Positions 2,085 through 46,412 are shown, numbered from the stretch's first letter. The stretch is DNA of 64,000 nucleotides from Okamejei kenojei (GCA_035221665.1 CM069161.1:2108001-2172000); one strand, 5' to 3'. Notes: generated by a model from the letters alone, not told the origin. Numbers and translations are program-made.

Positions 2085-2278
2085 GTGCAGGAGGAACTGC
2101 AGATGCTGGTTTACTCCGAAGATAGGCACAAAATGCTGGAGTAACTCAGCAAGATAGACAGCAGGAATGGGGAACGTTGAGACCCTTCTTCCATCTGAAG
2201 ATCCTGAAACGTCATCCATTCCTTCTATCCAGAGATGCTGTCTGACAGGCTGAGTTACTCCAGTATTTTGTGTCTATG
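2085..2278. mobile_element. Degenerate palindromic Penelope-derived mini-element
   Basis: Arms cacaaaatgctggagtaactcagc / gctgagttactccagtattttgtg around a decayed ctgaaga..gaaacgtc core. Confidence 0.7.
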
Positions 2279-3089
2279 CTCTTTACACAGATGCTGCCTG
2301 ACCTCTGGAGGGATTCCAGTATTTTCTGATGATATTTGAGATACTTTGGAAGTGGGGCCAGGAACTCATCACAAATCATGGTGCACGGTCATCAGGCTGA
2401 AGACTTCATCAACAGGGGAGTGAGACTTTTCTACTTCACTTCCCAGCCATGAGGTCCAAGGAGTTGGGTTAATGACTTGGAGTACAGATGGAGTAGGTGT
2501 TCCAGCGCTGAGTAATTATCACTCAGCGACCAGACTGAGAACATCGTATCTGTTACAAGAGTGTTCATGCCCAGAGCTCAACATAAGCACTGAACGATTT
2601 TACATACAAACAGTCTGGGGAAGGAATTAATTTTGGTCAGTGATATCGTATCTACTGGCAGTCCAGTTTCAGTGGGAGTGAATGTGGAGGAAGCCTTACA
2701 ACAGGCAGGAAGTGCAAGTCAAATATCTACCTCGCTTCACTTTTTGCAAATGTAAACTTTGGTTCATACCTTTTGTGATTCAATTATAAAATAATTTACT
2801 GATGGTTGTTTTCAATGTAATTTGTGTTTGCATTCATCTGTGGAAAAATGCAAACCTCCAACTGAGAAGGAATAGGTCATTTGTTGCATTTGTAGATTTC
2901 ACTATATTTTACTGTAGTAGAGCTCAACTGTGTTAGTGCACATGAAGGAATACCGTCTGGCTGAAAATTAAAAAGCGATACGTACCCTCACTAAAGTCAT
3001 CGGGTATAAAATCCAAGCTGTAAAAAGAGGTTACCAATCACCAACAGAAGTGTGACCCTGCTGAGCATGACAGCATTCATTCCTATGCA

Positions 3090-3305
3090 AAAAATACATA
3101 GTTCTGGAGTAACTCTGCGAGTCAGGCAGCACCTCTGTACAACACGGACAGGTGACAATTTGCGCCGGGGCCCTTCTTCAGAATGAAGTGTCCTGACCCA
3201 AAGAGTCGCCTACCCGTTCTCTAAAGATGCTGCTTATCCCGGTGATTACTCCAGCATGTTGTGTTTTTTTGCTCAAGATTCCAGCATCTGCCGTTCCTTG
3301 TGTCT
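3090..3305. mobile_element. Degenerate palindromic Penelope-derived mini-element
   Basis: Inverted arms (ctggagtaactc / gattactccag), central cccttcttcaga, terminal ccagcatctg..gttccttgtgtct. Confidence 0.65.
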
Positions 3306-3731
3306 AGCCTCTTTCATACTTTGTAACTTACTAAACTGAATCGGCTAAATTGTATCATTCAGGCTAGTTTATGAATACAAATGTGAAATGAGCTGTTTAT
3401 GGTCTGTGAGTTTGAGAAGTACAGAAGAAACCGTGTAGACGATGCTACCAGATAGATGTTTAAGATGGTAGATTGTGCTATTCAATCAAACTGCATCCTT
3501 CTGAGTGTTGAGCATCAGTGTCCTTTGATCTGCGCCCATTTAGCAAAATGACCAATGTTATATCTTACTCCGATCTTGCTCCTTACAGGCAATGGACAGT
3601 TTGGGGGATGTCAGGAAGTAAGTCTTTCACTCAAGATTACAAAGTGTCAACCCTGTTTGTTTTGCCAGAGTGTTTATCGGGCGGCTTCGGATAATGAAAG
3701 GGTGAAATGCAGGCGTCAGAACATTGATGTC

Positions 3732-4745
3732 GACACAGAATGCTGGATTAACTCAACGGGACAGGCAGCATCTCTGGAGAGAAGGAATGGGTGACGTTTC
3801 GGGTCGAGACCCTTCTTCAGACTGATGCCAGGGGAGTGGGCGGTACAGATATAGAATGTAGTTGGAGACAGTAAGACTGGTGGATGAACTGGGAAGGGGG
3901 AGGGGACGGAGAGAGACGGAAAGCAAGGGCTACTTGAAGTTAGAGAAGGTAATATTCATACCTCTGGGGTGTAAGCTACCAAGGAAAATATGAGGTGCTG
4001 TTCCTCCAATTTGCGCTAGGCCTCTCTGACAATGGAGGAGCCCAGGACAGAAAGGTCAGATTGAGAATGGGAGGGGGAGTTAAAGCGTTGAGCAACCAGG
4101 TGATCAGATAGGTTAAGGCAGACTGAGCGGAGGTGTTCAGTGAAACGATCGCCGAGCCTGCGCTTGGTCTTGCCGATATACTGGAGTTGTCACCTGGAAC
4201 AGCGGATACAGTAGATGAGGCTGGAGGAAGTGCAAGCCTCACCTGAAAAGATTGTCAGGGTTCTTGGATAGAGTTGAGGGAGGGGGTAAAGGGACAGGTG
4301 TTGCATCTCCTGCGTTTTCAGGAGAAAGTGCTTGGGGAGGGAAACAGTCTGCAAAAAGCAGAAGGGGGTGAAGATGGGAAGATGTGGCCAGTAGTGAGAT
4401 CCCGTTGGAGATGGCGAAAATGTTGTAAGATTATATACTGTATTCGACTGCTGATGGGGTGGAAGGCGAGGGCAAGGGGGACTTTGTCCTTGTTACAAAT
4501 GGGGGGAGGGGGAGCAAGAGCGGAGCTGCGGGATATCGAGATCTTAGTGAGAGCCTCATCTATAATGGATGAGGGGAACCCCCGCTCGCTAAAGAATGAT
4601 GACCTGGCATGGAAAACCCTCATCCTGGCCGCAGATGCAGCGTAGATGGAGGAATTGGAAGCAAAGGATACTCTTTGCAGGAAGCAGGGTGGGTAGATGT
4701 GTAGTCTAGATAGCTATGGGTGTCAGTGGGTTTGTAATAGATATT
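3732..4745 (-). mobile_element. Penelope-like element fragment (RT C-terminus, GIY-YIG, 3' repeat with hammerhead core), frameshifted
   Basis: Minus strand encodes IYYKPTDTHSYLDYTSTHP (Penelope RT) and F.ERGFPSSIIDEAL; the GIY-YIG DNA matches the 5818-6158 copy. Confidence 0.85.
3793..3820 (-). ncRNA. Minimal hammerhead ribozyme core (Penelope-associated)
   Basis: CTGAAGA-A-GGGTC-TC-GACCC-GAAA-CGTC: intact core boxes and stem II, palindromic ACGT stem III; stem I weak. Confidence 0.65.
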
Positions 4746-5817
4746 ATTAATGATAATGCTGACTTATTGATGGTGTCTCATAACAGGACCCAAGTATGAG
4801 GTTCGACTGTCAGTGGAGTTGGGCATTGCCTGATACTTGTATGCCATGAAAATAACACAAAAAAACATAGATGTTGGAAATCTGGAATAAAAAAGCATGA
4901 AAATATTGGAAATACTCAGCAGGATCGGCATCATCTTTGGAAAGAGAAAAATAATCAATGTTTCAGGTTAATGGTCTGAGTGTGTGCTACTTTCCATCAA
5001 CAGCTTAAATCTGTATGTTACGACTTTCTGCTTCACAATCTGTGCATTGGTCATTGACCAGTCACTACTTCTGGATCACAGCATGCTCCATCCCAATATA
5101 TTTTCTCCTATGACAATTCCACGGCCTTTTAATTTGTGATGGCACTTGCAATGATTTGTGTCCACTGCTCCAGATTTCTGCTGTTTACTATTTTTCAGGC
5201 ATTTTGAGATTCTATTCTTCCCACCAAAATATACCACTCATGGAGATCAAATTAAAGTTCATTTACCTACTACCCAATCTGACAGTTAATTACTTTGCTT
5301 CTGTACTTGAAATAATATAATATGCTGGAAACAGTCAAAAGGTCAAGCAGCATCTGTTGAAAAAGAGAAATAATGTTTTTGTTCTAAAACTCTTTGTGCA
5401 TTTATTTTTTCAAAATACTTTTTTATTACTTTTATTTTCCTGGATTTTATCAGCTATCAATAGATTGAACTCCCCAGTTCAAGTTTTAACGCTGGTCCTT
5501 ATCTTGGTCATCACAAAATACCTCAGTGAACCTCCTGATGAGCGGATTAACTTTCATACCCTATTGCCAATTTTCTAACTAGCACTTAAAGTTGAAAGGC
5601 ATTGTATTTCCTCGATATCTGAAAAATATAAACATGCTAGTTTCTCACTAATAGTTCATAAGAGCTGTAACTGAAAAATGGTTTCACCCATGCCACAATT
5701 TTCCGGCGTTTAGAGGCACTTTGTTGGCAGCCAACAATATAGCCACATCCACGTGTTTATAGTTTTGTTATATCTTTTAGTTTGGAGATATGGTGTGGAA
5801 ACAGACCCTTCGGTCCA

Positions 5818-6485
5818 AGCAGTCCTTCCAGGTCCGACAGAGGTTCACCTGCACCTCCTCCAACCTCATCTACTGCATCCGCTGCTCCAGATGCCAGATG
5901 ATCTATATCGGTGAGACCAAGCGGAGGCTTGGCGATCGTTTCGCCGAACACCTCCGCTCGGTCCGCAATAACCAACCCGACCTCCCGGTGGTTCAGCACT
6001 TCAACTCCCCCTCCCATTCCGTAACCGATCTCTCGGTCCTGGGCCTCCTCCACGGCCAGAGTGAACAACATCGCAAGTTGGAGGAACAGCACCTCATATT
6101 CCGCTTGGGGAGTCTGCATCCTCTGGGCTTGAACATTGAATTTTCTCAATTCTGTTAACCCTTGCTTTCTCCTCCCCTTCCCACCTCTCCCTCAGCCCTC
6201 GGGCCCTGGCATTCCCTCTCTCTCTATCTCTCTCCCCCACCCTAGTCACACTAGCTTCTCATTTTCACACCACAAACAGCTTACAATGGCTTGTTCCCTT
6301 TATCATCGAATACTTTTTTGCATATCTTTCATTCATTGTTCTTTATCTCTCCTCATCACCGTCTATATCTCTCGTTTCCCTGATCCCTGACCAGTCTGAA
6401 GAAGGGTCTCGACCCGAAACGTCGCCTATCTCCTTCGCTCCTTAGATGCTGCTGCACCCGCTGAGTTTCTCCAGCTTTATGTGTA
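5818..6485 (+). mobile_element. 5'-truncated Penelope-like element: GIY-YIG endonuclease end plus 3' repeat
   Basis: ORF FTCTSSNLIYCIRCSRCQMIYIGETKRRLGDRFAEH...GLN. Flanked by ccttcggtcca (5807-5817) and ccttcgatcca (6486-6496). Confidence 0.9.
6396..6423 (+). ncRNA. Minimal hammerhead ribozyme core in the Penelope 3' repeat
   Basis: ctgaaga agggtctcgaccc gaaa cgtc. Confidence 0.65.
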
Positions 6486-7029
6486 CCTTCGATCCACTAT
6501 GTCCGTGCAGACCAACAATCAGGCATACGCTAGCTTTAATCCTACCCGTACGGATAATTTATAGAAGCCAACTAACCTCCAAACCTGCACATCTTTGGAA
6601 TGTGGAAAGAAAGCAGAACACCCGGTGAAAAACAAGGAAAATGTACAAACTCCTTGCAGACAGAACCTGGTTCTCTGGCGCTGCAAGGCAGCAACTCTAC
6701 TACTACGGAATTGTGCTGCGTGTTGACTAATCCTCATGCCGAAGCTGCAAATCTGAAACAGCACAAAGTATTGGAAACATTCACCCGGTCCTAGTGCTTC
6801 CAGGTTTTTCTGCTTTTATTTTATTGTTTCTGCCCATTTTTGTTACACCTCATCAAATTTCAGAACTATTGGGATCCAAAAGCCTCAAGTGGTTAAATAA
6901 GGATCAGACGTGTCCCGTTTGCAAAGTCCTTCCTTGGCATCATCCCTCCCTACATCGCTAATATCGCCAACACCAAGCAAGGCCTTCCTCCAGCGCCATC
7001 TACTTGGCAGTGCTGTCGACCAGCTAGTA

Positions 7030-7560
7030 GAGTCATAGAATGATAGTGTGGAGATAGTGTCCCACTTGCCTGCGCTTGGTCCATACCCCTCCAATAGTCC
7101 CGGCCTCAACTACCTCCTCTGGCAACTTGTTCCATACACCCACCACCTTTTGTGAGAAAAAGTTACCCCTCGGATTCCTTTTAAATATTTTCCCCCTCAC
7201 CTTGAGTATATATCCTCTGGTACTCGATTCCCCTACTCTGGGCAAGAGACTGTGTATCTACCCGATCTATTCCTCTCATGATTTTATACATCTCTATAAG
7301 TTCACCCCTCACCCTCCTGCGCTCCATGGAATAGGGACCCAGCCTACTCAACCTCTCCCCATAGCTCACACCCTCCAGTCCTGGCAACATCCTCGTAAAT
7401 CTTTTCTGAACCCTTTCAAGCTTGACAATATCTTTCCTATAACATAGTGCCCAGAACTGAACACAATATTCTAGATACAGTCTCACCAATGTCTTATACA
7501 ACTGCAACATGACCTACCAACTTCTATACTCAATACTCTGACGGATGAAGGCCAAGTACT
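7030..7560 (-). mobile_element. CR1 LINE 3' fragment, frameshifted
   Basis: ORFs 7181-7510 and 7033-7245 carry CR1 ORF2 C-terminal motifs. Confidence 0.88.
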
Positions 7561-7949
7561 CAAAGCTCTGGAATTTACTCTGCATTTGTATCTCTTGTCA
7601 CTCTGCAAAATCTACCTCTGTCTTTGCCACCATCATATACATCTCAACAAAACATTATTTGTCTTGACTTAATACTTCCAACAATATTTGATATTTAATA
7701 TCTTAATATTTGAGGCTGAGATTTTCCTAATGGAGCAAAGTGCAATTGGGATTTCTTTGGAATTGAAGAATTATGTGATAGTAAGGGGAAAATATTTTCT
7801 GAGATGTGTCAACATTATTACTTCAGAATTAACTGTGTTTATTTTGTTTTTGTCTGGTAGGTACATTGTGTAGGTCCTTGGCTTTTGAGATTGCAGGAAA
7901 GAATTGAGGATTGGTGTGAGCAGCACATTCAAGGTAAGATCTCATGAAA

Positions 7950-8177
7950 GGACAGAAAGAGCTGAATAACTCAGCAGGTCAGGTAGCATCACTGGTGAAC
8001 ATCGATATGTGATGTTTCAGTCAAGAACCTTCTTCAGACTGATTGGTCTGAGGAAGGGTCTTAATCAGAAATGTCACCTACCCATGTTCTCAGGAGACGC
8101 TGCCTGATCTGCTGAGTTACTGAAGCAAATTGTGACGTTTTGCATATTAACCAGCATCTGTAGTTTTTTGTTTCTAC
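7950..8177. mobile_element. Degenerate palindromic Penelope-derived mini-element
   Basis: taactcagcaggtcagg / cctgatctgctgagtta arms with decayed hammerhead cores on both strands. Confidence 0.7.
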
Positions 8178-8399
8178 TCTAAGATCCCATGAATGAAGAT
8201 CTTTCCAAAGTAGAAAATTCTTAGTAAGATGCATCCGTAGATAATGAGCCTGCAATGAAGTATGACTCTGTAGCAGCTTGCTACCACTTGATTAAATATT
8301 CATCACGCACATTCTATCAAAGTTGCTCTGTGTTTCAATACTCCTTTGATGGAACAGCAGGTATTTCATATACAGGAATTTCAAAAATAACATTAATGA

Positions 8400-11300: not shown

Positions 11301-13421
11301 GTGCATCTGGGGGACATTTCCAAATATTACTAGAATTAAATGGCAGTGAAGTAGAGATAGCTCCAAAAGAAAAAGCAAGCTATCTTGTAAACAAAATTGA
11401 GCAACATGCTAATTCATACAGTTGGAAATTATAACAGAGGAAGGAGTAAAAAGAATGACAAAGGTAGGATCAAAATATTCTTAATAGTAATAGAGATAAA
11501 TTAAGCAGTACGACAGCAATGACTTCTAGATTTGAGGAGCTGGAGAGAAGATAATGCTTAGCAGAAGACAAACACTTCCCACAGGGAATATTAGGAGAAA
11601 CAAGGAAACCAAGTTATGAACTTGATAGCAGTTCATTTCATGACAATTGTGGTTCTAATTTCAACTCAGAATATGTGCAACTCGATCTCTCTTTAAAGCG
11701 AAGGATTTAAAAACCAACAGGTGGAGCGTTATTGGAAAACAAAGTAGGAATAAGGCTGGGAAAAATATCAGGAATGTTAATTGGGACAAATAATCCAACT
11801 TAAATATATGTACAATGTGTTTTAGATACCCCTAATGTTAATTTTTTATTATCTTAAATAACAAGAGCGATGGACCACATCAGGACTACATGGTTCTGCA
11901 TGAAACATTTTTCCAACGGCAGTGCAGTGGGATTTTATAAAAGGAACTTTAAATATAAAATCTAAAGTACACAATTGAAACTAAAATAGAGCAGGAAACG
12001 AGTAGTGTGCAAGTGGGCAGCTTTCATACAATTGAATCTAATTGTGGGGTACTGCTGAATATATGTAATGGCATTTTAAAACCATACAGTTGGATATCTG
12101 AGTAATTCTGCTCAGACCTTTGTGCATTTTCGAATTACTCCTTTGAGGATGGTGCATTTTAGCACCGTCGGAACTTACAACAGAATTCTATCTTTTATTT
12201 GGAATATCTACTGCCAAGAATTGTTAAATTCACTTCAGCAATTTAGTGTAGAATATAAAGGAACCTTGGTAAACCAGCATCTGCAGTTCCTTGTTTCTAC
12301 ATAAAAGAACTTTTTAGTTGTTGGTGGAGAGGGGACAAGTGTTCGTTCTGAAAGTGTTCCATTGCTGGCAACCTAACAGATTTCTTTGTAGGTGAGATGG
12401 GACAGCACAATGAAAGAGGTGGAGAGGTTGGCCAATAGAACATGAAAACCATCAAAGCAGGTGTAGTTGCTTAAGAGTAGAAGCGAATAGTCCTGGGAAC
12501 ACCAGAGAAATGGTGTCTATTCCCTTTATCTGGGTTTTCTGGGTTCCCACAGCCTTTCTGTCCAAGAAATAGTGAAGGGGCAGGAGAATGCCAGGGATAA
12601 TCAGCTCTACAGTTTGGGAATGTCCCCTTGTATTCACATCAATTCAGCAATTGTTGCACCTGGTTTAAAATAAAGTTTAGAAAAATGTTACCCTATACAA
12701 GTTGACTTAACTTAAAATATTCTTAAATATTAATAACTACAGGTCTGTAGAGAGCAAAACTTCATACAACATTTACAGTATTAAACAGAATAACCTTGCA
12801 GCTGAAACAAACACTGTTTATCTCTGAAGGTAGAATATTTCTAATCCCATGCTGGTGCTGAGAATTGATTTTTATGCAGATTAGTGCTTGAGGTTTTGGA
12901 AACATACCGACAGTTCTGTGTAATGTGCCCATTATGTATAAATTATAGTAAATTGATTACAAGTTGTACAAATCACAGCATTGTCTTTGAAAATAAATGT
13001 CAATTATCTGCACCGTATTGTAATTTATGTGTCAGACTTCCTTAAAAAGTCCAATTAAAATTGCTCATTGTACATTTTAACTATACCTATGTAAAGTAAA
13101 AAGGTGAGCTGACCTGATAATGGATTAGTCTAGCATTCGTCACTTAACCATTCATACTTTGAATTTGATTTCATGTCTCTTTCCCCAACATTTAAACTTC
13201 TGTACATTTGTTAGAAAAGTTAGAAACAACAAAGAATTCAGTAACGAAATAAAACTAAACCCACTAGTTTCTTTTCCTCTGGCTTATTTCGAATGCAAGT
13301 GGAAGCAGCTTCATTGCACAGTGCACCGTGTGATTACATGTGCAGGAGATATAATAGCAGATCTGCTATTATACTTCTGCAGTGGCTCACAACATGGGAT
13401 TTAGAATCTAGAGGATTGCCT
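8400..13421 (-). other. TANC2: Probable TANC2 3'UTR (~5 kb)
   Basis: AT-rich and essentially TE-free from the stop codon to candidate poly(A) signals; TE density resumes below ~8200. The end point is inferred. Confidence 0.6.
8421..8529 (-). terminator. Candidate TANC2 polyadenylation signals AATAAA (8524-8529) and ATTAAA (8421-8426)
   Basis: Minus-strand hexamers, each preceded by TGTA motifs, located where the TE-free zone ends. Confidence 0.5.
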
Positions 13422-15429
13422 TTATACATTTGACTCTACGAATGGTCTCTTTGGTTTTAAAGGTGATGTTGGCCCTTGTCGTGAGTCTCTGGAAAGCTGC
13501 CGATATATGCTGTCCTGATATGCCTGTGCAACAGGCAGCGTTCTGGCCACTTTTACATCTGGATACGAGGGAGTTTGACTAACTCTCTCCAAAATTTCTG
13601 CCCGGGATCCATTGGTCAGCTTCCCATGGGGGATACACATGTCCTCCTCAAGCAGGTGACCATTTTGGGCATTGTTAGTCTTATTGAAAAAAGCAATATT
13701 ACTAACTGGGGGTGGGCTGTAGGAGGCGGATTGAGGGGACATTCCTCCAGAGGAAGTGGGGCTGGTGATGACAGTGTCGACAGAGGACACAGCCCACGTT
13801 CGGCTCTGCTGGTGCATGTGGGTGTATTGCTGTGTCCGAGCTGTTTTATCTATGATCCCCATGAAAGGTGTGGTCCTTGAACGACCAGAGTCTCCAGGGT
13901 AACCCTGGGTTGGAGAGATGGGAGACTGTTCTTCATTGGATCGGCTTTCATAGGAGGGTTTTATTGGAATCTCCATCTGTTGGATGGAAGCAGAAGGTCG
14001 AAATGATGACACAACATTAGAGCTCGAAGAAAGGCTATTGTTAGAGGGGGAGAAACGAAGGCCAGTGCTTTGGGAATGGAGCAGTGGTCGGGGAGTTGGT
14101 GGGTGAGGTTTGATCTCTGGAGGATTCACAGTGAGTGCCCTCCTGATCATGTGAGATACATCTGGAGATGAAATCTGGCTAGATGGAACAGAAGATCTTT
14201 CCAATTCATGCTTGGAATGGGATACAGGATAATATGATGCAGACTGACTGCGACCAATCTGAGGGGTCTGGCCATACCTCACTCCTCCTCGAAAGGCTGA
14301 AGAAGGTCTTTGGCTGTGATCCTCTTTGGTCAACACTGATCCAGGATGTTGACAAACATTGCTGATTGCACCTGCACTCAGACTGGCCTGCACATGCTGG
14401 ACGGGTCTGCTGTCAGCTACCACTCCACCCATTACAGGCTGATATACCAGGCGACTTTGAGTAGGAGCCATATCAACTGAAGACTGATGTTTGGTACTCA
14501 TGGAGTGAGGTCCCTGGTTATAGGATCCACCAAGTATAACAACACTAGAGTGTACCGCAGAGCTGGGCTGATTGGTGCGAACAATTTGAGCTTTGGCTGG
14601 TTGTAACCTAAGTCCTTGTTGGGGTAGACCGGATGGAGGTTGAGATAATTGATAGGGTCTTTGGGCCATTTTAGACAAAGGAGACTTTGGCCTACCAGGA
14701 TGCTGGCCTATTGAGGTTTCTTGCTGATAGCGGACTGGGGAGCCAGACTGAGACCTATATACACTCATACTATCTGCAGGAGGACTAGCTCTGTACTGTG
14801 GGGCCCTACGCAGTGGAGAAGGTGGGGGACTTGACTGGTAATCTTTGTTTGGGCCACTTACAGGAGGCGGGCTAAAGCGGTATGAAGAGCCCTGATGAGC
14901 AGGGGAGGTGGGAGGAGGGCTAGGCCGATAATGAGAATTCTGATGGGTAGGAGAAATTGATGGTGATGTGGATTGGTACCCCTGCCGAGTGGGGGAGGAG
15001 ATGGAAGGATTTGGTCTGTAGTCAAAAACCTGGTGGGAGTTGAGAGGCGAGCTGGATCTGTAGGTGGGTTCACGGTGGGCCGGGGAAGGTGGTGGACTCT
15101 GGATAACAGGCTGCCCTTGGCTAGGTCTTGTTTCATTCTGTAAGCCAACAGAGACATTGTCCAACTCCTGCTCCAAATATTCCTCATCATAAATTTCATG
15201 CATTGAGTCTAAGTCTTCTTGCTGAGTCTGTTGCTGTTGTTGCTGTGACTGCTGCTGCTGCTGTTGTTGTTGCTGTTGCTGTTGCTGTGGTTGCCCATAT
15301 TGTAACGGCTGGCCATATTGCAACTGCCTGAATTCCTCTTCTACCCGTATCAACAAGCGTTGTATCTCACGGTTATTCGGGCAAAGCTTCACAGCCTCAT
15401 GCAAATCTTCCAGGGCTGCTGGAAACTGC
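13422..15429 (-). CDS. TANC2: TANC2 terminal coding exon: end of TPR, polyQ, Pro/Ser-rich tail, C-terminal PDZ-binding motif ESNV
   Basis: catgcAG acceptor at 15430-15431, phase 2 ([22 protein letters not shown]). The 660-aa ORF ends [11 protein letters not shown]-stop, the TANC2-type terminus. Confidence 0.97.
15219..15323 (-). repeat. Coding CAG/CAA polyglutamine tract (Q13-S-Q6-T-Q2) preceded by duplicated LQYGQP
   Basis: Read directly from sequence and translation. Confidence 0.95.
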
Positions 15430-15924
15430 CTGCATGGAAGAATATTGTATGTAAGATAAATATGGTCTTACTTGAGATACATCATCCATCATTTATTAAA
15501 AGTTATCTCCAATAAATTTTGGGATGTGTCCACGATGAAAAATGAACTCGCATTCCCTAGTCTCCAAATTATTTGCTTATCCACATTCTGGAGAAGATAC
15601 TATTATCATAGACTTCAACGTTTTCTCATCCCTGTTTATTTGATGCTACTTTCATTCTGCTCTGCATTCTTTTCAAATTTTCATTATTACATTTGCGATC
15701 ACAAATTAAATCAGTTAAAATTACTATTCTTATTGATTAAAATCTATTCTTTTCTTTTTCTACTTTCTAAAAAAATAGAAGTTTATAAGAATTACTTGTA
15801 ACATTCGTATACTTATTGAAATAAGTTGGTTGTGTATTTGAAAAGTTGTTATACCGTTGTTATGATGGATTACTTCTAATAAAAATATTATTACAACAAA
15901 TTAAATCAGTTAAATTTTGTTGGG

Positions 15925-17914: not shown

Positions 17915-18930
17915 ATTATAAAGTCATAGTAATACAGCACCGAGGCCTTTCAGCCTTACCCATCCATGGCGACCAAGGTACTCCTTCTAAGATAGTCGCA
18001 TTTACCCCCATTTGGCCCATAACCCCTAAACCTTTTCCATCCATATAGCTGTCCATATATCTTTTAAATGTTGTTATTGTAACTGCCTCAATTATTTCGT
18101 CTGACAGTTCGTCTGATATACCCACTTCCCTCTGAGTGGAAAAGTTGTCCCTCAATTTCCTATTAAATCTTTCCCCTCTCAGCTTAAACACATGCCTCTA
18201 GTTCTTGATTTGAATACCATGGGTAAAAGACTATATGCATTCACCTTATCTATTGCCCTCATGATGTTATACACCTCTATTAGGTCACCCCTCAACCTCC
18301 TGCACTCCAAGAAATAAACTCCTAGCCTGCCCAACCGTTTCCCTATAGCATCTATACCTCTAATCATATCCAAATGCATATATCTTATCCCATTTGAGTA
18401 ACTTTCCTGCCACCGATGTAAGGCTTACTGATCTATAATTTCCAGGTTTTTCTTTGTAGCCCTTCTTAAATAGAAGCACAATGTTAGCTACTCTCCAGTC
18501 CTCCGCCACCTCGCCTGTATCTAAATAATACGTCTCAGTTTGTGCTCTTCCAAATTCTTTTTGCTTCCCACCTTGGATATATCTGATCAGCCCAGTAGAT
18601 TTATCTACCTTCATATGTCTTAGAACATCCAGCACCTTCTCAACTTTCTAATACGGACTGTCATCAAGACATCACCATTAACTGTCCCAAGTTCCCTCGT
18701 CTTCCAGTCTTTCTCCGTATTAAACACAGATGTGAAATCTTCATTGGGAATCTTGCCCATCTCCTGCTGCTCCACACGTAAATGACTATGAATTTCTGAG
18801 GAGCCCTATCTATACTCTCTCTGCTTATCTATATACTTATAAAATCTATTTGGACTTTCCTTAATCTTACCTGCCAGAATTATCACATGCCCCCTTTTTG
18901 CACTCCCAATTTCCTTCTTAAGTATGTTAT
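17915..18930 (-). mobile_element. Degenerate CR1 LINE with internal deletion
   Basis: ORFs with DWRVANIV..GNYRSVSLTS, RRLRGDLIEVY and NFSTQREV motifs. Confidence 0.85.
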
Positions 18931-20041: not shown

Positions 20042-20233
<192 letters not shown>

Positions 20234-21345: not shown

Positions 21346-21837
21346 CAAGTCTTCTGAGCTTTCTGGTTAGGTTGTTAATGGATATATGGTCTAAAGTATA
21401 TATAAAATAAAACTAGATGCAAATTGCTCCTATGTTGCAGTCAGTAGCAAGGCAAGGGATTGAGCTAAAATTATCAATTGAGACACAAGGAATGACAGAT
21501 GCTGGCTGACCAGCTGCGTTACTCCAGCACTTTGTGTTTTGCTTGAATTGATGAATTATTTACCTGGAGATGGGCCAAAGATACTTAAATCGGACAACAT
21601 GTGAAGATAATGCACTATAGAAAGGTTTGGCCTCCTTTCTCTCAGAATTTATTCTGCAGCAAGCAGGGAATCCCATGATCTAATCTTTGTGTGCCTTGCT
21701 ATGCGAAGTGAGAGAAAAGAAAAGGTGTGTTCAAGAGGAACGTAAATTACCATACATCACCATTTCTTTTGCATTATCATTAGGTTGAATTGGTTGAATT
21801 CTTTGCATTATCGTTAGACACAGCTGAGGTGCCAGAC

Positions 21838-22780
21838 CACTGCAGTGGTGCAGCTGATAGTGCCGCTGCCACATAGCACCAAGACAATAACACATAGACT
21901 AAGGTTCGATCCTGACCTCGGGTGCTGTTTTTGTCAGGTTTGCAAGTTCTCCCTGTGACTGGATGGGTTTCCTCCGCCTGCTCTGGTTTCCTGCCACATC
22001 CCTAAGATGTGCGGGTTTGGATGTTAATAGGCCTCTATAAATTGCCCCTAGAATGTTTGGAATGAACGAGAAAGTGGAATAACGTAGAACTAAGTGAACG
22101 AGTGGTTAATAGTCGGAGGTAGACACAAAAGCTGGTGTGACTCAGCGGGACAGGCAGCATCCCTGGAGAGAAGGAATGGGCGACGTTTCGGGTCAAGACC
22201 GTTCTTCAGACTGATGTCGGGGAGGGGTGGGACAAAGATAGAATGTAGTCTGAGACATTAAGACACGAGGGAGAACTGGGAAGCGGAAGGGGATAGAGAG
22301 AGAAAGCAAGGGCTATCTGAAGTTAGAGAAGTCAATGTTCATACCGCTGGGGTGTAAACTACCCAAGCAAAATATGAGGTGCTGTTCCTCCAATTTGCGC
22401 TAGGCCTCACTCTGACAATGGTGGCGGCCCAGGACAGAAAGGTCATAGTAATACAGCACAGAATGGTCAGATTGGGAATGGGAGCGGGAGTTGAAGTGTT
22501 GACTAACTGGAAGATCAGGTAGATTAAGACGGACTAAGCGGAGGTGATCAGGGGGATGGTAACACACGGCAAGGGTGGGGGTTGGGGTTGGAGGAAGGCA
22601 AGTGAGTAGATGGAGACGAGGCGATGTCTGGTGGGTGTTCAGAGAGGAGGGGGACATGAGGACTATTATATTGGTGGGGAGTAGCTGGGGTCACCTGGCT
22701 AAAAGGGGAAGGGGTCAATAGTCGGCTTAGACTCGATGGGCCAAAAGGCCTGTTTCCGTGCTGTATCTAAAACAAAACTG
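21838..22780 (+). mobile_element. HE1/V-SINE split by a Penelope insertion (pieces 21838-22116 and 22726-22780)
   Basis: A-box-like gtggtgcagctg, B-box ggttcgatcc at 21903, V-domain; tail gggccaaaaggcctgtttcc resumes after the insertion. Confidence 0.8.
22117..22716 (-). mobile_element. Penelope-like insertion with a 9-bp TSD (aatagtcgg)
   Basis: TSD at 22108-22116 and 22717-22725; GIY-YIG remnant LPVSQHFNS; hammerhead core at 22182-22209 with one stem II mismatch. Confidence 0.82.
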
Positions 22781-22789
22781 ATGGCTAAT

Positions 22790-23290
22790 ACTGTGTCAAG
22801 AAGGGCTGAAAGAAAAACCTGGGAACTGCAGATCAGTAAGCCCAACATCTATGGTAGATAACTTATTGGAGGGGATTAAGATATACGTGCATTTGTAAAG
22901 ACAGGGGTTAATTAAGGATGTGTAGGAAGGAACTGTAGATGTTGGTTTAAACCGAAGATAGACACCAAAAGCTGGAGTAACAGGCAAGTATCTCTGGAGA
23001 GAAGGAAGAGTGATGTTTTGGGTCAAGATTCTGCTTCAGACTATTAAGGATAGTCAGTACTGATTTGTGTGTGGGAGATTGTGTCTCACAAAATGTTTTA
23101 AAGAGGAAACCAAGAAAGTCAATGATGGCATGGCCATAGACATAGTTTATATGGACTTCAGCAAAGTCTTTAATAAGATTCCACGTGGTAGAGGTTTAGA
23201 TCAAACCGAGGCAAATAGGACTAGCCTAGATAGGCATCTGATAAGCACAGATGAGTTGGGCTAATGGGCCTATTTCTGTGATGTATATGA
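22790..23290 (+). mobile_element. Degenerate CR1 fragment interrupted by a single-arm Penelope mini-element (22920-23042, TSD attaaggat)
   Basis: DIVYMDFSKVFNKIP RT motif; 9-bp duplication at 22911-22919 and 23043-23051. Confidence 0.75.
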
Positions 23291-23595: not shown

Positions 23596-23889
<294 letters not shown>

Positions 23890-29667: not shown

Positions 29668-29890
29668 GTTACACAAAAAGCTGGAGACACTCAGCGGGTG
29701 CAGCAGCATCTAAGAGGCGAAGGAGACAGGCGACGTTTCGGGTCGAGACCCTTCTTCAGACTAAAGAAGGGTCTCGACCCGAAACGTCGCCTATCTCCTT
29801 CGCCTCTTAGATGCTGCTGCACCCGCTGAGTTTCTCCAGCTTTTTGTGTAACCCTCGATTCTCCAGCATCTGCAGTTTCTTCGTTAACAC
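29668..29890. mobile_element. Young palindromic Penelope-derived element with twin hammerhead cores and a 16-bp TSD
   Basis: TSD atcagaattaacttgg at 29652-29667 and 29891-29906. Arms 29666-29756 and 29764-29854 pair with 2 mismatches. Confidence 0.9.
29732..29759 (-). ncRNA. Intact minimal hammerhead core, sense to the TANC2 pre-mRNA
   Basis: CTGAAGA AGGGTCTCGACCC GAAA CGTC on the minus strand. Confidence 0.62.
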
Positions 29891-29976
29891 ATCAGAATTA
29901 ACTTGGTGCCCAGAGGAAAAGGGAAGTGCCTTGGCCAGTTGCAGTTTGGTACTGGCACCAGCTAATCTCTGGTTCA

Positions 29977-30144
<168 letters not shown>

Positions 30145-33063: not shown

Positions 33064-33093
33064 CTCGAGGACGACTTGGGAGTGTTTGGCAAC
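33064..33093 (-). CDS. TANC2: TANC2 30-nt alternative cassette microexon (G-CQTLPSRPR-G)
   Basis: Long pyrimidine tract ending tgacaAG, then GT TGC CAA ACA CTC CCA AGT CGT CCT CGA G, then GTACAC donor. Phase 1-1, frame-preserving. Peptide matches a 10-aa insert I recall in a mammalian TANC2 isoform. Confidence 0.85.

Positions 33094-36020: not shown

Positions 36021-36022
<2 letters not shown>

Positions 36023-36062
<40 letters not shown>
36023..36062. repeat. (AT)20 microsatellite
   Basis: Directly visible. Confidence 0.97.
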
Positions 36063-36067
<5 letters not shown>

Positions 36068-39000: not shown

Positions 39001-41113
39001 TGTTGTTGCAGGATTTTTTTTGCAATAGTGGTTTTCTGCAAATACTGACGTATTCCTGGCAATCACTACCCTATCTTGCAAAACATCATGTCAGGTACTT
39101 AAAGGAAAACAGTGCCATCATTGCAGAAAATGTTTTTATTAGTATACAGCAACAAGAGAAATTGTGTTAGTGAGTCAACAAATACAGAAACATACAGAAA
39201 GCCGATGACAGAGGAATAGCAATCTGACGACCTTGAGGATTATGCATTCTGTGGGAGTGTCACCTGATTTTCATCCACATTTACAGCACAGCGTAAAGTA
39301 TCAGATGAGACTATATCAAAGGAGATCATAAGATCAGAAAGAGGTGTCCAGGCCACATGCAGCAAACCCCACATTTGGATAATCAGCTCTCAAGACCATA
39401 GGATTCCACTTCTACTTCTGATTTTGTTACTTTGTCATTCATATTTTTCAATTTTATGCCCACTGGGGTTGGAAAAGTGTATTGTCATGCACTCTTGCCA
39501 TGGTGCCAATTAAACCTCGAATCCCAACGAAAATCTAATGGTACCAACAAGTGAATGGGAAAATGGAAATAGTTGACAAATTTGCTATTGGATTTAAAGT
39601 TCATGCTTGTCCCCTGAGGCTGCAAACAAGCATGTTAGTGAGTGCATGAAGCTTGGACTCTCTTGCTCTGGAATAGCAGCACAGTGTTGTGAAAAGGCCA
39701 AAGCACAGATCAATGTCACTACGATATAAGTTCAGGCTAGTAAACAAAGATGAAGCAAATTGGGATGTATTATCATTTCCAGAATCGTGTTTCCTTAGAT
39801 TTTCTTCCTTCTAATAACAGAATTAATTCACAATGAAGTAAAACATTGTTGGGGTTTCAAGATACTACAGTCAATCAAAATTAATATTTTTTGTCACATT
39901 TATTTTAAAGTTTCACTTATTGGAGTTGAATTATAATAAATATCACTAAATGTTTAAAGTTAAATATATTTTCTTCCGATTGAAAATCCAACAACATGAA
40001 AAATAATCTGCATCCTTATTAACTTTCATCTGTTTGGACAATACCAAATATAGTGCTTAAAAGAACTAAAATTTTAGTTGTGTGATATCTGCTAAATTCA
40101 TGCAATTCTAAAACTGCCACTATTAGGTTTTGCTTCCTGATTCCACCATTTTCTCTAGCTTTTGGAGGTAGGCAATACATTTATACTGTTTCCACCAAAA
40201 TGTAACTGAAAGAACAATGAGAAAAGTCTGACACAAATCCAAAATTTTCACCCAGACCAAACATGAGCTGGCATCCTGCATTTGGATGTCCTTTCTCTTG
40301 GCCTCTCTTGGTAACTTCCAACTGCTCAATCAATTAAAAAAAGACTATTTGCATGGAACGTAATTGCATTACGATTTCTCATTGAGATGCCTTTATGCAT
40401 CTCACAGAAGGATTTTCATTCATTGGCCAAGGGTGGTGAATAGATGGGGGAAAAATATTATACATCTCAAAGGAATTACTTAAAAATTAGAATGTTGGAT
40501 ATGTATCTATGCTGTTTGTTTTCCAGCAGAAATTTCCAAACAGCAGAGGTTCATTGGACTCCACTGTGATAAATTAATGAATGTCTTTTGTAGCCACATG
40601 CTTTCTAAACAGATATATTGATCCAGTAATCCCAGTTATATGAATCTATACATTAGATTATCTGATGTTCCTATTTCAGACATAATCCATTTTCCTAGTT
40701 TTAACCTCACAAATGTAATTCCCTCTTGAACCATCTGGAATATCAGCATCCAACTATTTTCATGTTTAGCAGTATTGAATACAGTGACTTCAAGGTCAAT
40801 GCATTGTACACTGTAGTAAGCTGTGTGAAGTCAAAGTTTAATTTAGTGCTGAAGATATTAGGTTCACAGGTTACTGCAAATCTGACAACAAAGGCTAGAC
40901 ACATCATTTCCTTATTAATGTTCCCAACATAGAAACGTAATCCATGAATAGTAAAGTGATGGTGTTTGAATGTATGATTTTCTTTTAAATACAAGCAGTC
41001 ACTCCCATACAAAAGTGAACATAAATTCACTTTGTACTTCAAAAGAGAATGTCAAACCTATCCCCCTGCTTCAATGAAAAGCATATCTACTCCAAACAGT
41101 CTAATGACACTCA

Positions 41114-41284
<171 letters not shown>

Positions 41285-41697
41285 TCACCAAGTTTAACAA
41301 ATACAAACATCAAAGCATTAAATATTTTAGTGATCATAACTTATCAGTATGATTAAGAATAGCAGAAATATTGTTTGACAGACAATTCAGTATAAGGAAA
41401 AATATATTATTGCCTAGAAATGGAATTGGTTAATATTTTATTCACTATTGCCTTAGTTAGAAATTGACTTTACCTGGAGTGAAATGAGATTATGAACATC
41501 TCCAGGTCATTTTCCATCAGTCAGGAAATTCTGCCAGCATCCCCAGATACATTTTATATGATCAAATGTGATCTCCTTGTCAGAAATCAATGACATAAGG
41601 CATTTTCTGTGGAAAGCTCCTTGGAGCATCCGTGGGGAAAATTAAACCAAAGTGTCCAGGCAACAACAAGTGAGAAACACTCCCTGATAGGTAGGTT

Positions 41698-43522
41698 ACA
41701 TAGAAACATAGAAATTAGGTGCAGGAGTAGGCCATTCAGCCCTTCGAGCCTGCACCGCCATTCAATATGATCATGGCTGATCATCCAACTCAGTATCCCG
41801 TACCTGCCTTCTCTCCATACCCTCTGATCCCCTTAGCCACAAGGGCCACATCCAACTCACTCTTAAATATAGCCAATGAACTGGCCTCAACTACCCTCTG
41901 TGGCAGAGAGTTCCAGAGACTCACCACTCTCTGTGTGAAAAAAGTCTTTCTCATCTCGGTCTTAAAGGATTTCCCCCTTATCCTTAAGCTGTGACCCCTT
42001 GTCCTGGACTTCCCCAACATCGGGAACAATCTTCCTGCATCTAGCCTGTCCAACCCCTTAAGAATTTTGTAAGTTTCTATAAGATCCCCTCTCAATCTCC
42101 TAAATTCCAGCGAGTATAAACCGAGTCTATCCAGTCTTTCTTCATAAGACAGTCCTGACATCCCAGGAATCAGTCTGGTGAACCTTCTCTGCACTCCCTC
42201 TATGGCAATAATGTCCTTCCTCAGATTTGGAGACCAAAACTGTACGCAATACTCCAGGTGTGGTCTCACCAAGACCCTGTACAACTGAAGTAGAACCTCC
42301 CTGCTCCTGTACTCAAATCCTTTAATAGAGCAACAGCAGATTGGGACTCCCTGACAAATCTTATGGTGTTGGATAGATTGATGGGACTGAAGGCTGATAA
42401 ATCCCCAGGGCCTGATGGTCTGCGTCCCAGGGTACTTAAGGAAGTGGCTCTAGAAATCGTGGATGCCTTGGTGATAATTTTCCAATGTTCTATAGACTCA
42501 GGATCAGTTCCTGTGGATTGGAGGAATTAACCTGGTGAACCGACGCTGCACTCCCTCAATAGCAATAATGACCTTCCTCAAATTAGGAGACCAAAATTGC
42601 ACACAATACTCCAGGTGTGGGCTCACCGGGGCCTTATGCAGCTGCAGTAGGACCTCCATGTTCCTAAACTCAAATCCTCTTGCAATGAAGGCCAACATGC
42701 CATCAGCGTTCTTCACTGCCTGCTGTACCTGCATGCTTACTTTCAGTGACTGATGTACAAGCACACCCAGGTCTCGTTGCACCTCCCCTTTTCCTAATCT
42801 GACGCCATTCAGATAATAATCTGCCTTCCTGTTCTTGCCACCAAAGTGGATAACCTCATATTTATTAACATTATACTGCATCTGCAATGCATCTGCCCAC
42901 TCACGCAACCTATCCAAGTCACCCTGCAGCCTCATAGCATTTTTCCTGCATCTAGATTTTGTCTAAATCGTTAATATATATTGTAAATAACTGGGGTCCC
43001 AGCACCGAGCCTTGCGACACCCCACTAGTTATGCCCTGCCATTCTGAAAAAGGACCCGTTAATTCCTACTCTTTGCTTCCTTTCTGCCAACCTGTTCTCT
43101 ATTCATGTCAATACCCTACCCCCAATACCATGTGCTCTAATTTTGCACATTAATCTCTTGTGTGGGACATTGTCAAAGGCTTTTTGAAAGTTCTGATACA
43201 CCATATCCACTGGCCCTCCTTTACATCCTCAAAATATTCCAGAAGATTAGTCAAGCATGATTTCCCCTTTATAAATCCATGATGACTTTGACCCATCCTG
43301 TCACAGCTTTCCAAATGCGCTGCTATAACATCTTTAACAATCGACTCAAGCATCTTCCCCACTATCAATGTAAGGCTAACTGGTCTATAATTCCACGTTT
43401 TCTCTCTCCCTCCTTCCTTAAAAAGTGGGGTTACATTGCCTACCCTCCAGTCCACAGCAACTGATCCAGAGTCGAGAGAACATTGGAAAATGATCACCAA
43501 TGCATCCACGATTTCTAGGGCC
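41698..43522 (-). mobile_element. Composite CR1 cluster: 3' copy 41698-42325 (-), inverted internal piece ~42370-42524 (+), older internal copy 42525-43522 (-)
   Basis: ORFs 41790-42284, 42504-42935 and 43150-43566 carry CR1 RT motifs; (acatagaa)n tail. Confidence 0.88.
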
Positions 43523-43734
43523 AGACTCCCACCCACTGTTTTCTCCACTGCACCCATTTGTTTCACTGAGATTGAGACAATGATCCTTTGAAGTTCACAA
43601 CCTCCTGCATAACTGACTCTCCCGGAAGCCAGATGCCCTCATCATCTAATAGACTTCATCCCCCAACACCTTTGATCATCAAGAGCCAAGGCTCAACTCA
43701 CCAACACTCCTCACAGACCTACATCTCCACATTA

Positions 43735-44265
43735 AGGTGAGAGGGGAAAGATTTAAGAGGAACTTGAGGGATAACCTTATTCACACAAAGCATGGTGGGT
43801 ATCAGAATCGAGCTGGCAGCAGAAGTGGTAGAAGCTGGTACAATAACAACATTTAAAAGAGAGAGAGACGAGGAACTACAGATACCGGAATCTTGACCAA
43901 AACACAAAGTGCTGGAGTATCTCAGCAGGTCAGGCAGCATTTGTGGAGGGAATAGACAAGATGACATTTTGGGTGATGATCCTTAAGATCTTTGGTCAGG
44001 ACCTTCTTTGGACCCATCCTCAGGAGTCCAAAGAAAGGACCTGACCCAAAACAGTACCTACCTATTCCCTCCACAGTTACTGCCTGACCTGCTCAGCTAC
44101 TCCAGCACTCAGCTTTTGCTCAATATTTAAAATACATTTGGATAGGCACATGTATGGAAAATATTTAGAGGGACATGGGTGAAATGGGACCAACGTAGAT
44201 CTTGGCATCTTGGTTGACATGGACGAGTTGGGCCGAAGGGCTATTTCTACATTGTATGATTAAGT
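43735..44265 (+). mobile_element. CR1 3' end interrupted by a palindromic Penelope mini-element (43859-44120)
   Basis: Duplication caacatttaaaa (43847-43858) / caatatttaaaa (44121-44132); inverted arms between them. Confidence 0.75.
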
Positions 44266-44798
44266 GACATCATGACCTATCTAATCAATGCATGCTAACA
44301 ACTAAAGGAAGATGACAATGCCATTCCCACTGGATTTGCCCTGACCTTCTCTACGGATTCCATCTTGTAGGTCCCAACCTTTTAGTCTTTTTGCAGACTC
44401 TTTCTCCTGGTTGACGTGCGTTATGCAGACGTCCTCCCTGCCTCTGACACTCCACACAGACCCTTCCTTTCCTATTCCTAATGCCTTGTTTATCAGACCA
44501 TAGCCCTCTCCCTTATTTCTTTCTTGGTATTCATTGTGGGGATGGTACATTGGACATTATTGTTAGCACTGCACTATAATGATGATCGTGGTATAAAACA
44601 CTAAAACTAAAGACCATAGGTTTCAAAGGGGTAAGCGATAATAAGGGATCTGCGAAGGAACCTATTTACACAGAGGATGTTTGTAATCTGGAAAGCACTA
44701 CTCGAGTGGATGGTGGAGTTACATTCTCTCACAACATTTAAGAAATACTTAGACGGACACTTGAATTGGCAAGATATAGAGGGCTACAGACCCAAATC

Positions 44799-45099
44799 GC
44801 GGCACGAGGCTCTGCGGTAGATTTTCTGCTTTACAGCGCTAGAGACCTGGGTTCCATCCTGACTACGCGTGGTGTCTGTATGGAGTTTGTATGTTCTCTC
44901 CGTGACCGCATGGGTTTTCTCTGGATGCTCCGGTTTCCTCCCATACTCCAAAGACTTACAAGATTAATGGTTACTATGGCTTAGATAAAAATGGTAAAAT
45001 GTCCCTTGTGTGCAGGATAGTGTTAGTGTACGGGCATTGCTGGTCGGCTCGGACGGTGGGCTGAAGGGCCGGTTTCTATGCTGTATCTCTAAACTAAAC
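44799..45099 (+). mobile_element. Full-length HE1/V-SINE inserted in a CR1 3' fragment (~44600-45200)
   Basis: tRNA-like head, V-domain ctccggtttcctcccatactccaaagac, tail gggctgaagggccggtttc..ctaaactaaac. Confidence 0.85.
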
Positions 45100-45957
45100 G
45101 AAAGTGCTGCTAAACAGGATTAGAATCGATGGTTACTTGAAAGACAGCATGGATATAATAGCACTGAGGGCCTGTTTCTGTGTTGTATTGCACTGTGATT
45201 CGACACCTTTCATCATCTTGCAGTGTAAATTATTTTTTGCTAATAACCCACAGGAAGGAACAAAGGAATAACGAAACAATGACAATGTGACAACAGTAAA
45301 AATGAAGGGACAAGATGTGAAAAAAAAATGAACAAAACAAGTATATACAGGAGGAAGAGTGAGAGGCATTACTCAACCGCATTTGAAATGTCTGCAAGAT
45401 CAAAAGTTTGTTAGGATTACAGTATCCACTCAGTTACTAAATAATTAAATGTTAGTTTTCTGAGCATTTTGATTCTGTACCAAAAAAATCTAAATATCCT
45501 TCAAGTAAACATTGTACTTTGAATAAATCACCATTAAGAGTAGAATTATCTCATCATTCTTTTGTCATTAAGCTTTTTACCACCATATTAAATATCACTT
45601 AAATTAATGTTAAACCTAAAGTATATAAGGTCACAAGGCAGATCCCATGCCTTAATAGTAGCAGCAATCATGGGCCTTACCTGCATACTCATGACAGTGT
45701 GATCTTCTGCTGGTTTCCAAGCTGCCAGGCTAGAGACCTGGCTGTTGAGCCTGCACTGTGCAAGCATAACACTGTCCATTCAACTGAATGGATGAAATTG
45801 GCTGCCAGGAGCAAGATAGGCAGTATTTTTTATATTCAGTTAAATTAGTTTCATGTTTTAAAACAGTCTTTATGTGACATAAATATAATTTTAAAAAATG
45901 TCGTGCCAAAAACAACAAAAGAGATTTGATGGGCCAACTAACAGCAATGATAGTCTT

Positions 45958-46412
45958 TCTGAAGACGGGTCCTGACCCGAAACGTCACCTATCAATTTTT
46001 TCGAGAGATACAGCCTGACCCGCTGAGTTACTCCAGCACTTTGTACGNNNNNNNNNNNNNNNNNNNNNNNNNNNNNNNNNNNNNNNNNNNNNNNNNNNNN
46101 NNNNNNNNNNNNNNNNNNNNNNNNNNNNNNNNNNNNNNNNNNNNNNNNNNNNNNNNNNNNNNNNNNNNNNNNNNNNNNNNNNNNNNNNNNNNNNNNNNNN
46201 NNNNNNNNNNNNNNNNNNNNNNNNNNNNNNNNNNNCAAGGTGCACAAAAACATCGCCACACCTACATGTCTAATTATAGTTGTTTTTATATGGTCAAACA
46301 AAGTATCGGCTTTTACAAAAGATAGACACAAAATGCTGGAGTATCTCAGCGGGTCAGGCACCATCTCTGGAGAAAATGTATAGGTAATGTTCGGGTCGGG
46401 ACCCTTCTTCAG
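45958..46412. mobile_element. Two oppositely oriented Penelope mini-element arms flanking the assembly gap; intact plus-strand hammerhead core at 45959-45986
   Basis: ctgaaga cgggtcctgaccc gaaa cgtc on plus; decayed core on minus at ~46385-46411. Confidence 0.72.
46048..46235. other. Assembly gap (188 N)
   Basis: Run of N. Confidence 1.

Follow-up and report, generated by a model that had tools for sequence, protein, structure and literature searches.

Short hammerhead-bearing repeats in a skate genome as 3′ ends of Neptune-type Penelope elements with a recurrent 5′ edge

We analysed 64,000 nt of one strand of the genome of the skate Okamejei kenojei (GCA_035221665.1 CM069161.1:2108001-2172000), hereafter the window, to which all counts, trees and tests are limited. 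The window contains many copies of a short, hammerhead-bearing unit derived from Penelope elements (Table 1). Positions within the unit are counted on the sense strand of the element, the C of the CTGAAGA box being 0. An nhmmer profile of the unit gave 35 matches in the window and none in the reversed window. We accepted as arms the 27 matches above 8.5 bits, the best score from 10 shuffled windows; they make up 3.9% of the window. The eight matches at or below this score were excluded from the arm count, although two of them (1950-2031 and 61405-61443) are nonetheless read as weak arms. The 27 arms group into 19 events: seven head-to-head pairs, seven short single copies, and five copies that extend upstream into coding sequence (3732, 6396, 22117, 47267 and 55450-56202). 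The very old split copy at 1925-2335 was left out of this event count. All 11 loci named in the original prediction are present in the sequence. The predicted density of one copy per 5-8 kb proved too low, with ~19-20 events found per 64 kb, and the list of copies was selective, since additional short copies with other starts were found. Overlooked singles are 4900 (starting at +15), 5315 (+36), 62317 (+70) and 12270 (+97, tail only); overlooked head-to-head copies are 21497 (junction ~+47/+102) and 61460 (+22; left arm weak, E 3.6).

As judged from their sequence, the repeats are the last ~95 or ~130 bp (the pseudo-long terminal repeat, or pLTR, with or without a “tail”) of elasmobranch Neptune-type Penelope elements. 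The predicted Penelope origin of the unit was confirmed: it forms the 3′ end of copies that encode reverse transcriptase (RT) and GIY-YIG sequence, and the GIY-YIG copies 3732, 6396 and 22117 all end in it. The peptide read from 5781-6155 matched Pfam GIY-YIG with an E value of 1.4e-4, just under the cut-off, and had 37 longer homologs, with skate, shark and ray proteins at the top. Both RVT_1 and GIY-YIG were found in two of six homologs scanned (P0005 and P0024). Copy 3730-4765 aligns with P0005 from the C-terminal part of the RT through GIY-YIG, the domain order of endonuclease-positive (EN+) Penelope elements, here in fragments only. Shark and ray homologs have CX4CxxC in the RT-EN linker; copy 3732 has a broken form, with CxxC retained and a stop at the first Cys position. 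A CX2-5CxxC linker motif marks the Neptune clade (PMC8557442). From this linker motif we assign the elements, provisionally, to the Neptune clade, as no RT core lies in the window. We also considered a single large inverted insertion spanning 3730-6485. This was rejected because its arms are only 75-84% alike and belong to different subfamilies, with two unrelated old copies between them.

The five palindromes of the original prediction are indeed head-to-head pairs, and their junction sequences differ from one another. The 3′ ends of the arms are bimodal, centring on ~+92 and ~+129: 14 of the 27 lie at +86..+107 and 12 at +122..+130, and one tandem piece ends at +61. In all seven head-to-head events, the weak arm of 61460 included, a tail is present on one arm only (0.5^7 = 0.008). 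We scored target site duplications (TSDs) at 18 loci, each against 60 random placements; copy 45958, whose 3′ end runs into an N gap (46048-46235), was outside this test. The predicted TSDs held at p≤0.05 for six loci (29668, 22920, 47267, 7950, 43859 and 2085), whereas the other 12 loci, the named copies 3090 and 46320 included, had no significant TSD. Four of the seven head-to-head events, each an inverted 5′-truncated copy beside a direct copy, have a TSD at p≤0.05. An inverted truncated copy with a tail of 30-40 bp at one end is known from Penelope elements (PMC3846280, PMC8557442). In vitro, the Penelope protein starts reverse transcription internally at two sites, between which the tail lies, and it cuts and extends both target strands; ribozyme mutants leave insertion unchanged (PMC11167929). 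We concluded that the palindromes are the known Penelope insertion pattern, with head-to-head arms, a single tail and target duplications.

Some copies have further peculiarities. The insertion of the 2085 palindrome duplicated 15 bp of an older copy of its own family (2071-2335). Tail-only pieces occur as a lone insertion (12268-12300) and as the inverted arm (21482-21507) of a head-to-head copy. At the heart of the 43859 palindrome (43990-44045), ~21 bp agree more closely than the arms do elsewhere and have an altered box in common, a hint of fold-back or conversion acting locally at a later time. At 45958-46414, two single arms lie tail to tail across a 188-base N gap, where the assembly is possibly unreliable.

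Table 1. Copies of the unit and associated features in the window
Feature	Position	Strand or arms	Details
Very old, probably head-to-head copy	1925..2335		split by the 2086-2278 insertion; nhmmer E 3e-5 (2280-2333) and E 0.55 (2031-1950); centre resembles that of 7950
Head-to-head copy (2085)	2086..2278	tailed arm 2086-2193 (-), tail-less arm 2194-2278 (+)	junction near -1; internal deletions in both arms; inside an older copy of the same family
TSD of 2086-2278	2071-2085 and 2279-2293		13/15
Head-to-head copy	3090..3308	tail-less arm (-), tailed arm (+)	junction -1 to +3; no significant TSD
5′-truncated broken coding copy (3732)	3730..4765	-	C of CTGA box at 3820; P0005 tblastn; RT C-terminal part, Cys linker, GIY-YIG, 3′ untranslated region (UTR), tail-less unit
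Old single arm with tail (4900)	4859..4969	-	5′ end ~+15; nhmmer E 8e-7
Old single arm without tail (5315)	5317..5366	-	~+36 to +89; nhmmer E 4e-5; candidate TSD 8/8, p 0.07
5′-truncated coding copy (6396)	5818..6485	+	GIY-YIG end, pyrimidine-rich 3′ UTR, tail-less unit
YCAG-T motif	6391..6397	+	-5..+1 of copy 6396
Minimal type I hammerhead motif, reference copy	6394..6425	+	fits Fig. S3 consensus of PMC4209133; 2-bp stem I; CUGAAGA + extra A; stem II 6404-6415; GAAA 6416-6419; CGUC 6420-6423; predicted cut after 6423
Head-to-head copy (7950)	7949..8179	tail-less arm (-), tailed arm (+)	junction near -5; TSD 13/14
Tail-only insertion (12270)	12268..12300	+	nhmmer E 8e-5; candidate TSD 11/13, p 0.07
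Head-to-head copy, different junction (21497)	21482..21545	tail-only arm (-), arm from ~+47 (+)	arms joined at 8-bp internal inverted repeat; candidate TSD 6/6, not significant
5′-truncated coding copy (22117)	22113..22551	-	GIY-YIG end, 3′ UTR, tail-less unit; box C at 22209
Single arm with tail	22920..23042	-	5′ end exactly -3; TSD 9/9 at 22911-22919 and 23043-23051
Youngest head-to-head copy	29668..29890	tail on + arm	centre at -1; arms 97% alike; TSD 16/16
Head-to-head copy	43859..44120	tailed arm (-), tail-less arm (+)	centre near -7; tailed arm holds a duplicated piece of the motif; TSD 11/12
Single arm	45958..46047	+	5′ end -1; 3′ end lost in N gap
Single arm without full tail	46320..46414	-	5′ end -2; TSD not significant
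6396-subfamily copy (47267)	47207..47335	+	GIY-YIG stop region joined directly to +24..+28; TSD 14/14
Old coding copy	55450..56202	+	GIY-YIG remnant, 3′ UTR, decayed motif, 27-bp tandem duplication, tail
Probable head-to-head copy (61460)	61405..61540	tailed arm from +22 (+), weak tail-less arm (-)	nhmmer E 2e-15 and E 3.6
Old single arm (62317)	62288..62344	+	~+70 to tail end; nhmmer E 7e-6

The original prediction had offered a single non-autonomous family, a ribozyme-bearing short interspersed nuclear element (SINE) or retrozyme, as one origin of the short copies. We built a tree of 21 rows and 88 columns, with tail columns excluded; five of 26 rows (2085L, 56103a, 5315, 12270 and 62317) were omitted as too short or gapped. 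The youngest palindrome, 29668, groups with coding copies 6396 and 47267 (support 99/99) and is 94-96% identical to 6396. A clade of palindromes was rejected (approximately unbiased [AU] test, p 1.4e-7), and palindromes sit among coding copies; the palindromic-arm clade was still rejected (p 0.012) without the four rows of the 29668 subfamily. Clades of all short copies (AU p 2e-6, 21 rows), of edge-starting arms (p≤2e-6), of tailed arms and of tail-less arms were each rejected as well. A master palindrome, with left arms together and right arms together, was likewise rejected by the tree. Among 16 Tandem Repeats Finder (TRF) rows there were no tandem units, only one 27-bp internal duplication. 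The window contains no tRNA gene that could have supplied a tRNA head; a B-box was found in 0 of 27 arms, and the A-box gave two chance-like matches. The mixed tree and the differing junctions therefore refute one ribozyme-SINE family, against which the missing stem II covariation, tandems and tRNA head also count.

Several small lineages could still give such a tree: short non-autonomous SINE-like elements, each arising from one Penelope subfamily, with an internal promoter, and copied in trans by Penelope RT. Short events do outnumber long ones (14 versus 5), the unit holds all that the subfamilies conserve in common, and copy 7950 and the old copy at ~2030 have a similar 7-nt centre. Without the four rows of the youngest subfamily, that of 29668, a short-copy clade was not rejected (p 0.16), and pLTR-derived non-autonomous elements have been reported (PMC8557442; bioRxiv 10.64898/2026.07.22.740005). 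However, such lineages do not account for the differing junctions of the named palindromes or for tailed and tail-less arms that fail to sort into clades, and they sit poorly with the lack of a tRNA head and tandem units and with a motif that decays as fast as the block downstream of it. We consider them quite unlikely. The units are very probably separate insertion products of several Neptune-type Penelope subfamilies rather than one new family.

As predicted, a minimal hammerhead motif is present. It fits the consensus of PMC4209133 in the core, the extra base, the G-C closing pair and GAAA-CG-UC. The core is complete (11/11) in 7 of 13 arms scored. Stem II, said to be kept, has 4/4 pairs in only 6 of the 13, and core plus 4-bp stem II are intact in 4. 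Covariation in stem II did not exceed that of shuffles, 226 of 500 of which scored as high or higher, and a single two-sided change was seen; the sample, 13 decayed copies from one window, gives low power. In the predicted fold, what had been described as a 2-nt loop is a loop of 4 nt on a stem of 4 bp. The loop does vary, its TC/TT and CC/CT variants reflecting CpG decay of C before G plus one variable base. Stem I has only 2 bp adjoining the core; published minimal hammerhead rows have a helix I of 2-6 bp (PMC4209133). We looked for a longer stem I and rejected it, as no consistent helix emerged and the best upstream/downstream duplexes differ in three long copies. A read-through zebra shark protein ends in LMKGLRPKR and copy 6396 reads LKKGLDPKR, a likeness suggesting that sharks have this motif in the same location.

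An Rfam scan of the window gave eight matches at E≤10, all sub-threshold and none to hammerhead families; the best falls on the 29668 hairpin. Divergence from consensus is 0.142 for the motif and 0.141 for the downstream conserved block. Decay of the motif is thus equal to that of the block, giving no hint that dispersed copies are under selection. The 29668 palindrome is predicted to fold into a hairpin of -183.3 kcal/mol that buries the motif, with a stem II pair probability of 0; in 101-nt context this probability is 0-0.03. The suggestion that active self-cleaving motifs are scattered through the genome is not borne out, since the 29668 motif is locked in its hairpin and published minimal hammerheads show no cleavage as monomers (PMC4209133). 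The ribozyme would be a passenger in short copies.

We next considered where the copies begin. The predicted pile-up of 5′ ends at the ribozyme edge holds for 8 of 14 short events, which start at -7..-1, and not for the other six, which start elsewhere. Among all 19 events, the same eight fall within an 11-nt window (p ~5e-4, uniform null); under exponential-length nulls, p ranged from 0 to 0.03. The p value for the edge is only approximate, as most of the ends were placed by eye and such arms had seeded the profile. Five of seven head-to-head copies are at the edge (p 0.005), as are three of seven singles (p 0.44 if the window is left free and 0.02 if the palindromes fix it). One of these singles, 22920, starts exactly at -3 and abuts a perfect TSD. 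Homology between subfamilies begins at this edge, at a conserved YCAG-T motif. Identity among four long copies begins at -6..-4, and CAGT, following a pyrimidine tract, is the same in all four long copies that retain it. On the 5′ side of 45958 and 46320 the flanking sequence is 35-40% pyrimidine, compared with 70-78% in long copies; hence these two arms are true truncations. A second acceptor-like pyrimidine-CAG site, with a 5+5 palindrome, lies at +38..+49 of the unit (e.g., 3771-3782, -), just before an ATG whose frame, read by eye, continues uninterrupted through the tail in some subfamilies but is closed in others.

The original prediction offered RT arrest and template switching at the ribozyme fold as its other explanation. 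RT would meet the fold from its 3′ side (+19 to +29), yet the edge copies contain the whole fold, and none of the seven head-to-head junctions is at stem II. Self-cleavage would leave ends at +28 (site +27) and stalling would leave ends 3′ of the fold; therefore, neither explains the edge. In addition, no short event of the 14 starts in +23..+33 (the nearest, 61460, starts at +22), an absence that alone is weak (p 0.26). Pairing of stem II is improbable in the contexts folded above, and the ribozyme mutants of PMC11167929 left insertion products unchanged in vitro. The same study reports that the anole Penelope hammerhead cuts when protein is present, and one copy, 47267, has a deletion that takes out the UTR and ribozyme core with a junction range that includes the predicted cut site. 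This single case may have arisen when RT jumped templates from a cleaved RNA, or it may be no more than a microhomology deletion. That the ribozyme sets the ends, by cleavage or by stalling, is very improbable.

A small palindrome offers another way to place the edge without any RNA end: self-priming or fold-back around -1, or a nuclease cut there. A 4+4 palindrome is centred on -1 in 3732 and 22117, and a 3+3 palindrome in 6396. The edge signal is strongest in head-to-head copies, 21497 is joined at another internal inverted repeat, and self-priming has been proposed for palindromic junctions in rotifer Penelopes (PMC3846280). However, a 1-nt loop cannot fold back, and better palindromes at +8..+19 and +38..+49 are unused as centres. 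Stem II is the best local palindrome in 6396 and is tied for best in 3732. As it is a better palindrome than the -1 site in these copies and would be met first by RT, its lack of use indicates that microhomology alone does not pick the site. Fold-back also leaves the single arm 22920 unexplained. We regard this explanation as decidedly improbable.

We tentatively propose, with slightly less than even confidence, that RT primed internally in the upstream pLTR runs off the 5′ end of an RNA to create the edge, and that two such cDNAs can join at the -1 palindrome. In other Penelope elements, transcription starts inside the pLTR, and the Penelope protein that cuts both target strands is a predicted dimer. 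The RNA would begin at the YCAG-T motif, with the A at -3, just before the hammerhead. Such a transcript would carry the RT start sites 95-130 nt from its own 5′ end, so that run-off would give a short cDNA of fixed length, which may be likened to the retroviral strong-stop product. Insertion of one run-off cDNA would yield a single arm. Two cDNAs, one per nicked strand, would join via the small palindrome to yield a head-to-head copy with one tail. Both the RNA end and this joining step are what we infer, beyond the observed identity of the element, its tail pattern and the mixed tree. YCAG-T fits an initiator-like pattern with the A at -3 as its +1, and there is a partial match to the downstream promoter element (DPE) over GUC; these patterns were fitted after the fact and are therefore not a test.

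YCAG-T also fits a 3′ splice acceptor, and the main rival to run-off takes the edge for a 3′ splice site (pyrimidine tract, CAG, T at -1), like that of Drosophila virilis Penelope. RT would either stop at splicing factors on unspliced RNA or cross the junction into a very short first exon. CAG lies at -4..-2 in four of four long copies, after a tract of 70-78% pyrimidine. In D. virilis, the intron terminates at the 5′ end of helix I (PMC4209133), and, counted by eye in part of the supplement of that paper, a YAG lies ≤10 nt before the box in ~20 of 43 motifs (intron-less row excluded; related species non-independent). Nevertheless, the three edge singles have no shared exon-1-like sequence 5′ of them (best matches 7-12 nt, E≥0.3), and arm 7950L retains unspliced upstream bases to -6. 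Donor-like motifs occur in three of four long copies, each at a different distance upstream, and a protein block would presumably be a weaker stop than an RNA end. We judge a splice-site origin unlikely.

Several observations weigh against run-off from an RNA 5′ end. The singles by themselves are weak, with three of seven at the edge; the ends range over -7 to +3, and six of the 14 short events begin away from the edge. Edge-starting arms seeded the profile, and the majority of ends were assigned by eye. The initiator-like pattern is common (1.3% of positions) and was noticed post hoc. In D. virilis Penelope, transcription starts ~120 nt upstream and the 5′ edge of the hammerhead is the intron end (PMC2377424, PMC4209133). 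The tree has only 88 columns, with 2 of 18 branches well supported, and the window holds fragments and no full-length element. Extending the run-off proposal, it is possible, if on balance doubtful, that the -5..+130 block is a self-contained cassette, with an internal RNA polymerase II (Pol II) start overlapping the hammerhead and both RT start sites; the short copies would then preserve traces of a strong-stop-like step and of priming on both strands.

A host gene has exons at 13422-15467 and 46653-46961 (-), between which lie six of the unit copies named in the original prediction. The gene contains ankyrin repeats, its last exon is long and of low complexity, and we take it to be similar to TANC1/TANC2. 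An RVT_1 match lies at 43153-43638. Segments 585-1259, 7058-7513 and 41790-43638 are presumably remnants of open reading frame 2 (ORF2) of CR1-type long interspersed nuclear elements. Matches at 22798-22895 and 18371-18467 were rejected as lying outside the unit family and, in our view, presumably resemble CR1-type ORF2 remnants too. A GC-rich nested minisatellite with periods of 11, 47, 55 and 102 occupies 52486-52967, beside 19-bp and 31-bp tandem arrays at 53348-53544.

Hammerheads at Penelope ends, dispersal of truncated copies and one-tail inverted insertions have all been published, and the bulk of what we describe is therefore ordinary. In a literature search of limited coverage, neither a fixed 5′ edge at the hammerhead nor this elasmobranch family turned up. 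The family is known in kind, and the feature that stands out is the fixed 5′ edge. The edge is useful in that, in a genome with many short copies, it makes the formation of Penelope inverted repeats and tails testable by breakpoint counts. Rather than active ribozymes, the palindromes would provide long double-stranded RNA hairpins within host introns, which could matter for editing or for small-RNA pathways. They also pose an annotation risk, as such copies can be mistaken for microRNA hairpins (cf. the sub-threshold Rfam matches) or for miniature inverted-repeat transposable elements. If the cassette interpretation is true, copy ends would map the transcript start in any genome, the origin of head-to-head repeats with one tail would be explained, and short copies could act as SINE-like, Pol II-driven sources.

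Short, hairpin-shaped repeats are also known from crocodilians, where the Chompy repeats were later filed under Penelope in repeat databases. The skate copies resemble non-LTR retrozymes (PMC7229834; bioRxiv 10.64898/2026.07.22.740005), reported from one chondrichthyan genome, in being non-coding, hammerhead-bearing and related to the pLTRs of Penelope-like elements (PLEs). Retrozymes, however, are head-to-tail tandems cut at the ribozyme and are mostly intergenic in Xenopus, whereas the skate copies occur singly or head-to-head, have their start ahead of the core and in six cases lie between host-gene exons. With the anole element PAc (PMC11167929) they share two 3′ ends ~35-40 nt apart, downstream of the hammerhead, and insertion into own-family sequence, here at 2085; PAc differs in belonging to the Poseidon clade; its ORF starts at stem II. 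The motif is like the minimal type I hammerheads of metazoan PLEs (PMC4209133), with CUGAAGA plus one base, the G-C closing pair, GAAA-CG-UC and a palindromic helix III, and its candidate 2-bp helix I is as in the Culex, Oikopleura and D. virilis rows. Those hammerheads, too, are mostly dispersed singles, with opposite-strand pairs 100-700 bp apart, and thousands of dispersed motifs are reported from coelacanth and Xenopus; the searched part of the supplement has no shark, Callorhinchus or Leucoraja entry. In organization the skate copies are like canonical EN+ PLEs of the Neptune clade (PMC3846280, PMC8557442), which have the RT-linker-GIY-YIG order, 5′ truncation, TSDs, a pLTR hammerhead, and an inverted 5′-truncated copy beside a direct one with a 30-40 bp tail at one end only. 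For these elements, the portions of the literature consulted describe palindromic junctions and variable truncation and no fixed edge at the ribozyme. In contrast, truncation in the skate often leaves both arms with the same ~95-130 bp and a common 5′ edge.

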